Positions 1-17,020 of a stretch of 64,000 nt of DNA are shown piece by piece (the first letter of the stretch is position 1; each line of letters opens with the position of its first letter). This DNA is from an uncultured bacterium (GTDB lineage Bacteria; Krumholzibacteriota; Krumholzibacteriia; LZORAL124-64-63), in contig CAVSGO010000008.1 of NCBI GenBank assembly GCA_963727525.1, forward strand, positions 192,001 to 256,000, read 5' to 3'. Below the pieces are notes generated by a model. That model saw only the letters and a program-made list of their open reading frames with translations. It was not told the DNA's origin and did not search any database. The position numbers and the translations under genes were made by a program.

Positions 1-600
1 CGCAGCGGGGCGATGACCGACGAGCAGAAATGGAAACGGTCCCTCTTTGAACAAAACTATGGCCGGCCGGACCCCAGGTCGTTGATGCGGGCGCTGCTCG
101 AGGTGCTCTCGGTCTCGCTCGACGGCGCCACCGAGGCCCACATCTGGAGCGACAAGCACAAGACCTATCCCTACGCGATCGCGAAGCTACGGTATTGCAA
201 GGTGATCCACGAGACGATCGACTCCCGTGAGCCGCGGACGAGTCGCAACCCGTTGTTCGAGGTCAACTTGCTGGACATGTTGCTGCGGCATTGTCTGAAA
301 GACCACACGCGGGAGACGATCGCGTTCGGGAAGCGACGCCAGCATTCGATCTACCGGCTGGCGATCTTCCTGGTGTGGCGCAACACGATCAAGTTGCGTC
401 GGGAGAAGCGGTGCTGGAGCACGCCGGCGATGCAGATCGGGATCGCCACGAAGCCCTTGACCGAGGAGGAGGTGTTGTCGCGGCGGCTGTTCGTGTCGCA
501 TATCGAGTTGCCGCCGTTGTGGGATGACTACTACTGGCGACGGGTCGAGACGCGGCCATTGAAGGTGAACCGGAGGCACAAGCTGACGTACGCCGCGTAG
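1..600 (+). CDS. IS1-family-like transposase, C-terminal part (truncated by window edge)
   Basis: Same protein as the C-terminal half of 14741-15850 (WSDKHKTY, ETIAFGKR, TPAMQIG). Confidence 0.8.
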   Translation, partial: RSGAMTDEQKWKRSLFEQNYGRPDPRSLMRALLEVLSVSLDGATEAHIWSDKHKTYPYAIAKLRYCKVIHETIDSREPRTSRNPLFEVNLLDMLLRHCLKDHTRETIAFGKRRQHSIYRLAIFLVWRNTIKLRREKRCWSTPAMQIGIATKPLTEEEVLSRRLFVSHIELPPLWDDYYWRRVETRPLKVNRRHKLTYAA

Positions 601-664
601 TGAGAAAGTCGGGCCTGGCGGGCGAGATCCCGGTGCGAAGCCTCGTCAACATTCTTCTTGGCAC
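1..664 (+). mobile_element. IS1-like insertion element, copy 1 (5' part outside window)
   Basis: Positions 1-600 match 15251-15850 except at 130 and 339. Right terminal repeat CGTCAACATTCTTCTTGGCAC at 644-664 is a 20/21 reverse-complement match to the left end of copy 2 (14692-14712). Confidence 0.85.
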
Positions 665-727
665 AACCCGAAGAATGTGTGCGATCATGGATCCTGGATG
701 CCGTTCCTCGAGCCGAAAGGAAGCCGC

Positions 728-13862: not shown

Positions 13863-14690
13863 ATGCTACACCGCAAGACCGAGCGCCCACGGGGCGTCCT
13901 GAAGCTCGCCGAGACCGAAACCACCGGACTCGTGCACGAGCGTTTCCTGCCGTCCGACGACCTCGCTCCCTACGTGGAGCATTACTGGCGCGTCGCCTGG
14001 GATCGCTGCGATCTGGGGCCGATGCCCGTGGCCACCTTGCCTCACCCGAGCGTGCACATGACCTTCTCCGCCCCTGACGGGGGAATCATCGGTGGTCCGG
14101 CACGCGCCCGCTTCACGCGCGAACTGAACGACGTGGGCGAGGTCTTCGCCGTGAAATTCCGCCCCGGCGGTTTCCACCCCTTCGCCGCTGGGCCCGTCTC
14201 GCGTTTCACCGATATCACGGTGCCCGTAGCCACGGTCTTCGGGCCGGACGGCGCTGCGCTGGCGCATGCCGTGGTCTCGGCCGGTGAGACCGCAGGGCGG
14301 GTCGCGCTCACGGAGGCCTTCCTGCGTGCGCAGCAGCCTATTCCGGATGCCTGCGTGGCGCGCGCGGCCGAACTCGTGCTCCTGGTGATGCGAGAACCGG
14401 GGATCGTGAAGGTCGCCGATCTGGTCGCGCGCGCGGGTGTCGGCATGCGCACGCTGCAGCGCCTTTTCGCGGAGTACGTGGGCGTGGGTCCCAAATGGGT
14501 GATCCAGCGCTACCGTCTCCACGAAGCCGCCGAGCGTTTGGCAGCCGGCCCAGTGGACCATTCTGCTCTCGCCCTGGAGGTGGGCTACAGCGACCAGGCG
14601 CATTTCATCCGCGACTTCAAGGCCATCGTGGGCGTCACGCCGGCGGCCTACGCGCGGCGGGCGTGTCCAGAAACCTCACATCCCGACTAA
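13863..14690 (+). CDS. AraC family transcriptional regulator
   Basis: C-terminal RTLQRLF...VGVGPKW and GYSDQAHFIRDFK. Divergent from the DUF3224 gene. Confidence 0.92.
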   Translation: MLHRKTERPRGVLKLAETETTGLVHERFLPSDDLAPYVEHYWRVAWDRCDLGPMPVATLPHPSVHMTFSAPDGGIIGGPARARFTRELNDVGEVFAVKFRPGGFHPFAAGPVSRFTDITVPVATVFGPDGAALAHAVVSAGETAGRVALTEAFLRAQQPIPDACVARAAELVLLVMREPGIVKVADLVARAGVGMRTLQRLFAEYVGVGPKWVIQRYRLHEAAERLAAGPVDHSALALEVGYSDQAHFIRDFKAIVGVTPAAYARRACPETSHPD

Positions 14691-14691
14691 C

Positions 14692-15914
14692 GTGCCACGA
14701 AGAATGTTGACGGGTCCAGCGCTTGCCTGGGCCCGTCTTCATGAACACCAAAACCCTCACTTCATGCCCCTCGCTTCCTCCCCACTGCTCCAACCCTAAC
14801 TGCAAATACCACAAGCCTCAGCCGCAACCCTGGCCCTTCGCGCTCTTCGGCACCTTCTCCCGAAAATCCCCACCCTACACCGTCCAACGCTACCTCTGCC
14901 TGGCCTGCGGCAGGACCTGCTCAGACCAGACCTTCCGCACCACATACTGGCTCAAACGCGCCGATCTCCTGCCCAAGGTCCATAAGCACGCCGTCTCTGG
15001 CGCCGCCAACCGCCAGATCGCCAGGCTCCTCGACACCTCGCCGACGACCGTCGACAACCTCCTCGCCCGCCTCGGCCGACACTGCATCCTCTTCCATCGA
15101 CACCTGGTGTCCCAGGCGTCACCCTTCGTGGACATCGCCATCGACGGGCTCGTCACCTTCGAGCACTCCCAGTACTTCCCCTACGAGATCGTCACGGCCG
15201 TCGATCGCCCCTCCAGCTTCATCATCCACTTCGCCGAAGCCGAGCGGCGACGCAGCGGGGCGATGACCGACGAGCAGAAATGGAAACGGTCCCTCTTTGA
15301 ACAAAACTATGGCCGGCCGGACCCCAGGTCGTTGATGCGGGCGCTGCTCGAGGTGCTCTCGGTCTCGCTCGACGGCGCCGCCGAGGCCCACATCTGGAGC
15401 GACAAGCACAAGACCTATCCCTACGCGATCGCGAAGCTACGGTATTGCAAGGTGATCCACGAGACGATCGACTCCCGTGAGCCGCGGACGAGTCGCAACC
15501 CGTTGTTCGAGGTCAACTTGCTGGACATGTTGCTGCGGCATTGTCTGAAAGACCACACGCGGGAGACGATCGCGTTCGGGAAGCGACGGCAGCATTCGAT
15601 CTACCGGCTGGCGATCTTCCTGGTGTGGCGCAACACGATCAAGTTGCGTCGGGAGAAGCGGTGCTGGAGCACGCCGGCGATGCAGATCGGGATCGCCACG
15701 AAGCCCTTGACCGAGGAGGAGGTGTTGTCGCGGCGGCTGTTCGTGTCGCATATCGAGTTGCCGCCGTTGTGGGATGACTACTACTGGCGACGGGTCGAGA
15801 CGCGGCCATTGAAGGTGAACCGGAGGCACAAGCTGACGTACGCCGCGTAGCGGGTCTGTCGGGCGTGGCCGGGAGTACCGGGGCTCAAGGCGCCAACAAC
15901 ATTCTTCTTGGCAC
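14692..15914 (+). mobile_element. IS1-like insertion element, copy 2 (complete, 1223 bp)
   Basis: Left end GTGCCACGAAGAATGTTG (14692-14709) and right end CAACATTCTTCTTGGCAC (15897-15914) form a 17/18 inverted repeat. Flanked by AAC at 14689-14691 and 15915-15917. Single transposase ORF. Confidence 0.85.
14741..15850 (+). CDS. IS1-family-like transposase (Zn finger + HTH + DDE-like domain in one ORF)
   Basis: CSNPNC...CLAC zinc finger; HTH NRQIARLLDTSPTTV; acidic motifs IAIDG and WSDK; TPAM motif near the C-terminus. The third catalytic residue was not confidently identified. Confidence 0.8.
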   Translation: MNTKTLTSCPSLPPHCSNPNCKYHKPQPQPWPFALFGTFSRKSPPYTVQRYLCLACGRTCSDQTFRTTYWLKRADLLPKVHKHAVSGAANRQIARLLDTSPTTVDNLLARLGRHCILFHRHLVSQASPFVDIAIDGLVTFEHSQYFPYEIVTAVDRPSSFIIHFAEAERRRSGAMTDEQKWKRSLFEQNYGRPDPRSLMRALLEVLSVSLDGAAEAHIWSDKHKTYPYAIAKLRYCKVIHETIDSREPRTSRNPLFEVNLLDMLLRHCLKDHTRETIAFGKRRQHSIYRLAIFLVWRNTIKLRREKRCWSTPAMQIGIATKPLTEEEVLSRRLFVSHIELPPLWDDYYWRRVETRPLKVNRRHKLTYAA

Positions 15915-16033
15915 AACCTGGGGGGCGCCGACCCGTTCTCGGGTAGGACAACCCACGCGCATGGGGTATGATCTGACCAGGCGGGTGCGGCCGGAACCGA
16001 TGGGCGGGCCGGTGACGCAACCGTGGAAGGCGC

Positions 16034-17020
16034 ATGAAGTTGACACAACGGCCTGAAGATCGTGGGGATGCAGCGACCGCCGTCATGGTGACGGGCGGAG
16101 GCGGTTTCGTGGGGACCACGCTGGTGCCCGACCTGCTCGCCGACGGCCACCGCGTGGTGGTGTACGACGATTTTTCCGTGGGCCGGCGCCCAGCGCCTGC
16201 GGAAGGGCTGCAGGTGGTTACGGGCGATATCCGCGACGAGGCCCATCTGCGCACCGTCCTGCGGGAGCACGCCGTGGCGAGCGTCATCCATCTGGCGGCC
16301 CTGCACTATATCCCCCACTGCAACGCGCATCCGGTCGACACGCTGCACGTCAACGTGGTGGGGACGCAGGCGCTGCTGGAGGCATGCCGCGAGGCCGGTG
16401 TCGCGCGCCTGGTGTTCGCCTCTTCGGCGGCCGTGTACGGCCCCTCGGAGTCGGCGCATCGCGAGGACGAGGCCCATGCCCCGGTCGATATCTACGGCCT
16501 CAGCAAGAGCATCGGGGAGCAGCAGCTGGCCGCTTTCCACCGACGCACCGGAATCCCGTGCACGGCGGCGCGCCTGTTCAACGTGTTCGGGCAAGGCGAG
16601 ACCAACCCGCACCTCATCCCCGAGATCCTGCGCCAGCTCGCCGAGCACGGAGACACGTTGAGCCTGGGCGCGCTCACGCCGCGGCGGGATTACGTGCACG
16701 TGACCGACGTGTCGCGAGCCCTGCGCGTATTCCTGGGCGCCACGGATCCGGGATTCTCGGTCTACAACGTGGGTACGGGCCACGCCGCCTCGGTGCGCGA
16801 CATCATCGCGTCCCTCGAGGACATTCTGCGGCGACCGCTGGTGGTGGAGCAGGACCCGGCCCGGCTACGCCCGGTCGATATGCCACACCTTCAGGCCGAC
16901 ATCGCGCGCCTGCAGGGCGACCTGGGCTGGTCGCCGGCGACCACGCTCACCGCGGGGCTGCGCGATCTCGTGCAGGCCAGCCTGCCTGGTGCGGGCGACG
17001 CAGGACGTCCGGTACCATGA
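16034..17020 (+). CDS. NAD-dependent epimerase/dehydratase (GalE-like extended SDR)
   Basis: TGGGGFVG, HLAA, SSAAVYG, YGLSK, RLFNVFG and RDYVHV. Confidence 0.92.
   Translation: MKLTQRPEDRGDAATAVMVTGGGGFVGTTLVPDLLADGHRVVVYDDFSVGRRPAPAEGLQVVTGDIRDEAHLRTVLREHAVASVIHLAALHYIPHCNAHPVDTLHVNVVGTQALLEACREAGVARLVFASSAAVYGPSESAHREDEAHAPVDIYGLSKSIGEQQLAAFHRRTGIPCTAARLFNVFGQGETNPHLIPEILRQLAEHGDTLSLGALTPRRDYVHVTDVSRALRVFLGATDPGFSVYNVGTGHAASVRDIIASLEDILRRPLVVEQDPARLRPVDMPHLQADIARLQGDLGWSPATTLTAGLRDLVQASLPGAGDAGRPVP

Follow-up and report, generated by a model that had tools for sequence, protein, structure and literature searches.

The insertion sequence in the window

The analysed stretch of DNA, here called the window, is 64,000 nt long and contains two copies of an insertion sequence (IS), whose features are collected in Table 1. 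Copy 2 occupies 14688-15918 (1,231 bp) and consists of a single open reading frame between terminal inverted repeats of at least 22 nt. Copy 1 reaches into the window from its left border; its full extent is G000:C8:191441-192668, and a 1-nt insertion near its 5' end breaks the reading frame. The host genome (8 contigs, 4.66 Mb) carries 23 full copies of the element at 96-98% identity, and the transposase frame is intact in 22 of these, the exception being copy 1 of the window. The same genome also has two partial copies, along with a relative of 65% identity that is itself present several times.

Table 1. Features of the two IS copies in the window (positions in nt from the start of the window)
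Feature	Position	Strand	Remarks
Transposase gene end, IS copy 1	1-600	+	Last 600 nt, cut by window start; stop codon TAG at 598-600
Stop-to-repeat spacer, allele A, copy 1	601-646	+	Majority type, A throughout in 18 of 23 copies
Right terminal inverted repeat (IRR), copy 1	647-668	+	Tip AACC; 22/22 identical to 15897-15918
Left end, IS copy 2	14688-14712	+	4-nt tip TAAC unlike right tip, then left inverted repeat (IRL)
5' stem-loop inside IRL, copy 2	14709-14743	+	3' arm enters the ATG at 14741-14743
Transposase gene, copy 2	14741-15850	+	369 aa; stop codon at 15848-15850
Stop-to-repeat spacer, allele B, copy 2	15851-15896	+	Minority type: 2 pure copies, parts in 3 mosaics
Right terminal inverted repeat (IRR), copy 2	15897-15918	+	Directly after spacer

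The two copies align at an offset of 15250. Their coding ends are identical at 598 of 600 positions (1-600 and 15251-15850), with differences at 130 and 339; the segment that follows the stop codon is identical at only 24 of 46 positions (601-646 and 15851-15896), and the repeat after it at all 22 (647-668 and 15897-15918). These values, which we recomputed, confirm that the drop in identity after the stop codon is real, as reported in the original prediction, and alignment of both spacers also bore out the short core that was said to be common to them. Base composition alone would give 14 identities in 46 positions; the 24 observed exceed this expectation (binomial P = 0.0017), so that the two spacers, referred to below as alleles A and B, are still homologous, if strongly diverged.

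The segment had been described as a hypervariable cassette of fixed length, differing between copies without indels, and each part of this description holds in part. The ungapped lengths of A and B are equal, but their gapped alignment is best with four gaps that cancel out, and the absence of indels is thus not proven. The length is 46 nt in 22 of the 23 genomic copies, but 47 nt in the remaining one. Fifteen distinct spacers occur over the 23 copies, but they represent only two haplotypes plus three mosaics.

At its other end the element carries a stem-loop with a predicted free energy of -24.6 kcal/mol (z -5.51), which none of 200 shuffled sequences equalled in stability. It is found at the same place in all 23 copies, and a G-to-A change present in seven of them turns a U-G pair into a U-A pair. 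It resembles the classical arrangement by which the start codon is masked in read-in transcripts. A terminator scan of 14600-16050 gave no intrinsic terminator-like site, and a promoter scan gave one promoter-like site, which lies outside the element. A search of sequencing runs for the element listed no RNA run. The sole match of the element to Rfam is a weak one, under the gathering score, to BjrC68 at the left end (E 0.21), and the spacer has no Rfam match.

The transposase and its family

Alignment with homologues reveals four invariant cysteines near the N-terminus of the transposase (C16, C21, C53 and C56), followed by a helix-turn-helix (HTH) motif at residues 87-110 (HTH_38, E 2.4e-5). 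Among the acidic residues, D135 and D221 are invariant and E275 is nearly so, and the three are likely to form the catalytic triad. The AlphaFold model of the protein (pLDDT 84.4, pTM 0.85) arranges its strands and helices in the order of an RNase-H-like core, and Foldseek matches it to retroviral integrase cores and to the DDE transposase of ISCth4 (best E 3.8e-6). By this predicted structure the transposase is a DDE enzyme, and not one of the IS110 type.

Pfam identifies no transposase domain in the query; in a set of 37 homologues, its sole transposase match is a weak one to DDE_Tnp_IS240 (E 0.0089) in a single protein. At E <= 1e-5, 2,300 proteins match the transposase. The best 120 of these are mostly unnamed or called "transposase-like protein", and the matches in genomes with an organism name come mostly from Candidatus Eisenbacteria. 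The element thus belongs to a large transposase family that is abundant, poorly annotated and without a Pfam match for its catalytic domain.

We refer to the element as IS1-like. In common with the IS1 family it has a zinc-binding motif and an HTH motif N-terminal to the DDE core. The inverted repeats of IS1 begin with GGT and its target duplications measure about 9 bp, to which the GGT tip common in the family of the present element and the 9-bp duplication visible in some copies may correspond. All 23 copies also match the NCBIfam IS1 model NF033558 weakly (21-24 bits against a cut-off of 100, over model positions 19-136 of 199), and the element is not filed in the IS1 family itself. It differs from IS1 in its organization, with one ORF of 369 aa in 1.23 kb and no frameshift, and in its 4-nt left tip, which does not mirror the right tip. 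The longer, single-ORF members of ISfinder's "ISMhu11-type" are what we take to be the closest comparison within IS1. Read on the outward strand, the right tip of the present element and both tips of its relatives are GGTTGT, from which the left tip here deviates.

Spacer alleles and their diversity

The 23 spacers fall into a simple structure. Eighteen are allele A throughout, two are allele B (window copy 2 and the copy at C7:1990946-1992188), and three are A/B mosaics. One mosaic starts as A and is B-like in the remainder; another switches from A to B between positions 19 and 20; and the third has the first four bases of B, followed by A-like sequence with an extra base. A and B differ at 22 of 46 ungapped positions, whereas 21 of 176 fourfold-degenerate sites of the gene segregate among 22 copies.

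Diversity in the gene and the spacer was calculated over the 22 copies other than window copy 1. It is 0.0146 for the whole gene, 0.035 at fourfold-degenerate sites and 0.187 for the spacer when all copies are taken together. In the 18 copies with an A-type 3' half, spacer diversity is 0.057, close to the neutral yardstick of the fourfold sites, which indicates that the high overall figure stems from the B block. The right inverted repeat, in all 23 copies, has a diversity of 0.004. Within type A, three alleles occur at a single position of the spacer. Two other multi-copy elements of the family have a similarly modest excess: one with five copies in the same genome, at a spacer diversity of 0.106 against 0.041 at fourfold sites, and one from an Eisenbacteria genome, with 0.130 against 0.090 in the two copies used of the four that were fetched, the other two being left out.

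Neither allele folds better than its shuffled versions, whether read in sense (z +0.63 for A, -0.49 for B) or in antisense (z -0.12 for A, -1.21 for B). A weak mirror image of the left non-coding end can be made out in allele A (z 2.3, a score reached by 9 of 500 shuffles) but not in allele B (z -0.69). In allele A the inverted repeat is extended by three bases (CGT), as it is in the relatives L058, L060 and L122, and the GAGAAAGTC start of allele A is found in L122 as well. The mirroring of the left end, the CGT extension and the likeness to L122 point to A as the native and B as the odd allele.

A donor for allele B was sought at three levels. Outside the element, none was found elsewhere in this genome; 207 other genomes of the phylum yielded only chance-level or repeat-only matches; and among the spacers of 84 relatives there was none, no alignment being better than those of shuffles. 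The idea that B is a simple inversion of A was also considered and rejected, a by-eye comparison with the reverse complement giving nothing beyond 6-7 bases.

Recombination among copies and selection on the variants

The original prediction offered, as one of its options, that old insertions had diverged while their coding sequence was homogenised by gene conversion, and this option comes nearest to what we find. Its recombination part is well borne out. All four gametes are present in 1140 of 2211 pairs of informative sites, the Hudson-Kaplan minimum number of recombination events (Rm) is 23, and in the haplotype matrix the variants assort nearly freely, each copy having its own mosaic haplotype at 63 gene sites. 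None of the gene variants shows linkage to B, and A and B copies have the same sequence over the final 160 nt of the gene. The other part, old insertions that diverged in place, is excluded by the near-invariance of the repeat that directly adjoins the spacer (0.004, as given above). The 22 intact genes segregate 41 synonymous and 23 non-synonymous changes, which indicates that the variation has been filtered by selection for a working transposase and does not reflect decay in place. The divergence is a property of allele lineages, not of individual insertion sites.

The variants were also checked against independent assemblies, by aligning contigs of four other metagenome runs (Logan) to copy 2. 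Of 28 alternative letters in these contigs, 20 are alleles present among the 23 copies, some of them in a single copy. This argues against a collapse of the coding sequence and for an old, widely shared polymorphism. Two runs have a contig whose end is precisely the stop codon, which is what a branch in the sequence graph would lead one to expect. A contig of run X4 has a B-like spacer and shares a variant with one of the mosaic copies. Should short reads have been used to polish the assembly, the mosaic copies themselves could be errors of that step. A search for the same element by an exact-anchor pattern returned 0 metagenome contigs, and it did not turn up above 90% identity in the public collections scanned, its relatives reaching at most 63% amino-acid identity in genomes and 71% in metagenomes. 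Close relatives being lacking, variation within the element was studied in this genome and in the Logan contigs only.

Concerted evolution of IS copies by gene conversion is raised in a report on ISWpi1 of Wolbachia (PMC2515875). The two cases are alike in that the copies within one genome are kept similar and do not evolve independently, which in the present element is visible as mosaic haplotypes. They differ in that homogenisation is incomplete here, one short non-coding block having kept two very different alleles.

Insertion sites and tests for a guide

Reports on the IS110 and IS1111 guide systems describe a bridge RNA or seekRNA with loops that pair with the target and the donor (PMC13396178, PMC13604230, PMC13626964). 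The present element has a likeness to these systems in that a non-coding segment inside the element adjoins the transposase gene and differs between elements. In IS1111 the non-coding guide segment also lies 3' of the gene. The likeness does not extend to the enzyme, however: those systems use a DEDD (RuvC-like) recombinase with an IS110-type C-terminal domain, whereas the fold predicted here is that of a DDE integrase. The present element has inverted repeats and a 9-bp duplication, where those systems lack terminal inverted repeats and long target duplications, and its spacer has neither complementarity to the target nor a significant fold. Moreover, the same guide leads to the same target in IS110 and IS1111, whereas identical spacers are found at unlike sites here.

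The points on complementarity and on identical spacers rest on direct comparisons of spacers and insertion sites. Complementarity of the spacer to the site of insertion had been proposed as a check on a programmable module. With 30-nt flanks searched on either strand, the longest exact match of a spacer averages 6.09 nt to its own flanks and 6.21 nt to those of other copies, and 4067 of 5000 permutations reach the observed sum; own flanks are thus matched no better than permuted ones. Four copies share one identical spacer and three share another, and both sets lie at unlike insertion sites. The preferred target is palindromic around the 9-bp duplication, roughly G-CAW-NNN-TTG-C, and is common to A and B copies. 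This consensus explains the choice of target.

The element also lacks both marks of a diversity-generating retroelement as far as this spacer is concerned. The differences between A and B are not adenine-specific, 6 of the 22 falling on A in allele A and 4 in allele B, and neither spacer recurs in the genome outside the element, where it could act as a template repeat. With no match between spacer and target, no significant fold, no Rfam match, no template and a transposase of predicted DDE type, the proposal of a programmable or diversifying module is not supported, nor is a role of the spacer as a programmable guide.

Target duplications are visible in a minority of copies. The 9-bp flanks (14679-14687 and 15919-15927 for window copy 2) match at 7 or more of 9 positions in 5 of 23 copies, compared with 10 of 506 cross-pairs that the consensus alone provides. 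Three duplications stand out from the target consensus, two matching at 7/9 and one, at C5:362158-363398, being perfect. Other copies have unlike flanks that still fit the palindromic consensus, which suggests many crossovers between IS copies or changes at the borders. Duplications swapped between copies were considered as proof of such crossovers and discarded, because the target consensus explains the cross-matches of 7/9 or better.

Two pairs of copies share short flanks. The copies at G000 C8:191441 and C3:168781 have 15 nt of left flank in common, with one mismatch, and those at C7:1736943 and C4:82033 have 17 nt of right flank in common; beyond this the sequences are unrelated in both pairs. 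Such sharing could mean that flanking sequence was carried along, that the target is a repeat, or that there was bleed-through from polishing.

Spacers in related elements

We collected 53 distinct spacers from relatives with 41-66% amino-acid identity in the transposase, 31 further matches being left out because they had no recognisable tip or were too short. Thirty-four of the 53 are 42-46 nt long, without sequence in common. Folding at z < -2 is seen for 19 of 53 in sense and 17 of 53 in antisense, as against 1 of 53 length-matched pieces of the genes (Wilcoxon P = 4e-5). These counts indicate that many, though not all, members of the family have a GC-rich hairpin immediately inward of the right repeat, and that the length of the spacer is maintained. 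In the 65% relative of the same genome, our by-eye reading is that variants keep the sense stem, a G-C pair becoming G-U and a U-G pair U-A. The hairpin of the present element appears to be a decayed one.

IS10 and IS50 have terminator-like 3' hairpins, and at the 5' end they have hairpins by which the start codon is hidden in read-through transcripts. The elements studied here resemble them in the stable spacer hairpin of the 19 relatives and in the strong 5' hairpin over the start codon, and differ from them in that neither spacer allele of the present element beats its shuffles and no canonical terminator is found.

The closest relative by protein (L057, 71%) ends its contig, after the stop codon, in a perfect 62-nt palindrome, which is probably a fold-back of the assembly and not biology.

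Origin and maintenance of the two spacer alleles

The explanation that we favour, with a probability of roughly 60%, is that the segment is a nearly neutral 3' spacer of constrained length, in which an old or imported allele lies on an element body homogenised by recombination between copies. The 46 nt are the non-coding 3' stretch that separates the transposase gene of an IS1-like DDE element from its right repeat; the sequence of this stretch is close to neutral, and only its length and a short core are apparently kept. The 23 copies act as a recombining population, in which gene conversion or crossing-over goes on reshuffling a common pool of variants, and in which gene and inverted repeats stay almost uniform through selection on the active lineage. 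Of the two old alleles, A would be native, and B would have been imported from a diverged relative or kept for long as a variant. Recombination would then have placed B on the gene body of A and begun to break B up, giving rise to the three mosaics. By analogy with IS10 and IS50, read-in transcripts may have their start codon masked by the 5' hairpin. The 3' spacer may act as a linker of fixed length between gene and repeat, with a terminator-like hairpin that many relatives possess and that would have decayed here.

The main weakness of this explanation lies in the number of differences. Twenty-two differences in 46 nt exceed what admixture would lead one to expect from 21 segregating sites among 176 fourfold sites. 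If two lineages were admixed, then either the spacer evolves several times faster than synonymous sites, or the B allele came from a far more distant relative, of whose gene no trace is left. The edges of the divergent block are exactly the stop codon and the repeat, and a mechanism that acts on the spacer itself would also fit.

Local hypermutation would be such a mechanism. A quasi-palindromic spacer near the end of the element would gain clustered changes, for example by template switching in replicative transposition or repair, and changes in the gene and the repeats would be purged by selection. We regard this as unlikely, even though several observations agree with it. Spacer diversity exceeds fourfold diversity in three multi-copy elements, by 1.4-2.6 times, and by 5.4 times when B is included. 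The position with three alleles within A adjoins a 10-nt palindrome, hairpins occupy the same place in 19 of 53 relatives, and three target duplications, one perfect and two at 7/9, are recognisable. However, there is no gradient of change towards the spacer, the last 160 nt of the gene having few variants, mostly in single copies; the excess within A is small (0.057 against 0.035); neither allele makes a good hairpin; and the 22 differences of B are inherited as a recombining block, not as scattered recurrent changes. Still further from our expectation is functional diversification, in which the spacer would be a cis-acting RNA or DNA module with alleles kept by selection, for example for end recognition that separates co-resident lineages, for translational control through pairing with the 5' leader, or for guidance to a target. 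Its appeal is that a length of 42-46 nt is retained in 34 of 53 distinct spacers despite the loss of sequence similarity, that A and B have a short core in common, that the 5' part of allele A can pair, on a by-eye reading, with the leader around the start codon, and that divergence sets in and stops abruptly at the stop codon and the repeat. It is nevertheless improbable, given that spacers match their own flanks no better than others (6.09 against 6.21 nt, with 4067 of 5000 permutations reaching the sum), that one identical spacer occurs at four unlike sites in four copies, that a palindromic consensus common to A and B copies explains target choice, and that there is no significant fold or Rfam family. 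A DDE enzyme with inverted repeats, besides, needs no guide. We give equally little credence to a functional spacer that is constrained in length and free in sequence, with alleles selected because they determine the ends on which a transposase or its mRNA acts, be it by discrimination in cis or between lineages or by a 3'-5' pairing that controls translation; if it were true, two functionally distinct lineages could share one gene body in a single genome.

The possibility that the pattern is an artefact of assembly, also raised originally as a collapse of the coding sequence, seems very improbable. Diverged genes would have been collapsed or cross-polished, and their true divergence would be visible in the spacer only. 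The two pairs of copies with 15 and 17 nt of common flank could reflect bleed-through from polishing, and no sequencing run was found that contains half or more of the query words. Yet the 8 contigs of the genome place the 23 copies separately, and every copy has its own mosaic haplotype at the 63 gene sites; the 20 of 28 variant letters that recur in contigs of four other runs include some present in a single copy; and the 41 synonymous and 23 non-synonymous changes are not what a collapse would produce.

A nearly neutral spacer on a recombining element body, our preferred explanation, makes the phenomenon most likely an ordinary one. An RNA-guided or self-diversifying DDE element would have mattered greatly, and the tests speak against it. 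What the locus offers instead is a clean case of IS copies evolving as a population that recombines, in which two deep alleles persist in a non-coding block. It also points to an abundant transposase family without a Pfam match for its catalytic domain, with a spacer of 42-46 nt that often contains a hairpin. Finally, it advises caution, since a sharp drop of identity beside the end of an IS need not mean a programmable module.

Ends, junctions and possible derivatives of the element

The outermost 4 nt of the left end (14688-14691 in window copy 2) are TAAC in 15 of 23 copies and variable in the others. They do not mirror the right tip (15915-15918), whereas in relatives the two tips mirror each other. 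Directly past the right end of copy 1, the 10 nt at 669-678 are identical to the inner left repeat at 14698-14707, and may be the remnant of a second copy that was abutted or in tandem. When the ends of copy 2 are abutted (15905-15918 joined to 14688-14705), a -35-like TTGGCA from the right repeat and a -10-like AAGAAT from the left repeat come to lie 17 nt apart. From their sequence and spacing, these make a possible candidate for a junction promoter of a circular intermediate.

Partial forms of the element are seen as well. In the host genome, a lone, diverged left end with repeat, 5' hairpin and ATG lies at G000 C7:2182712-2182769 and is followed by unrelated sequence. In two genomes of the same bacterial family, repeat-like sequences occur in pairs of opposite orientation, about 110-500 nt apart (G161:C13:64992-65128 and C2:158857-158994; G131:C28:16974-17478). 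These pairs may be miniature non-autonomous derivatives of this IS family.
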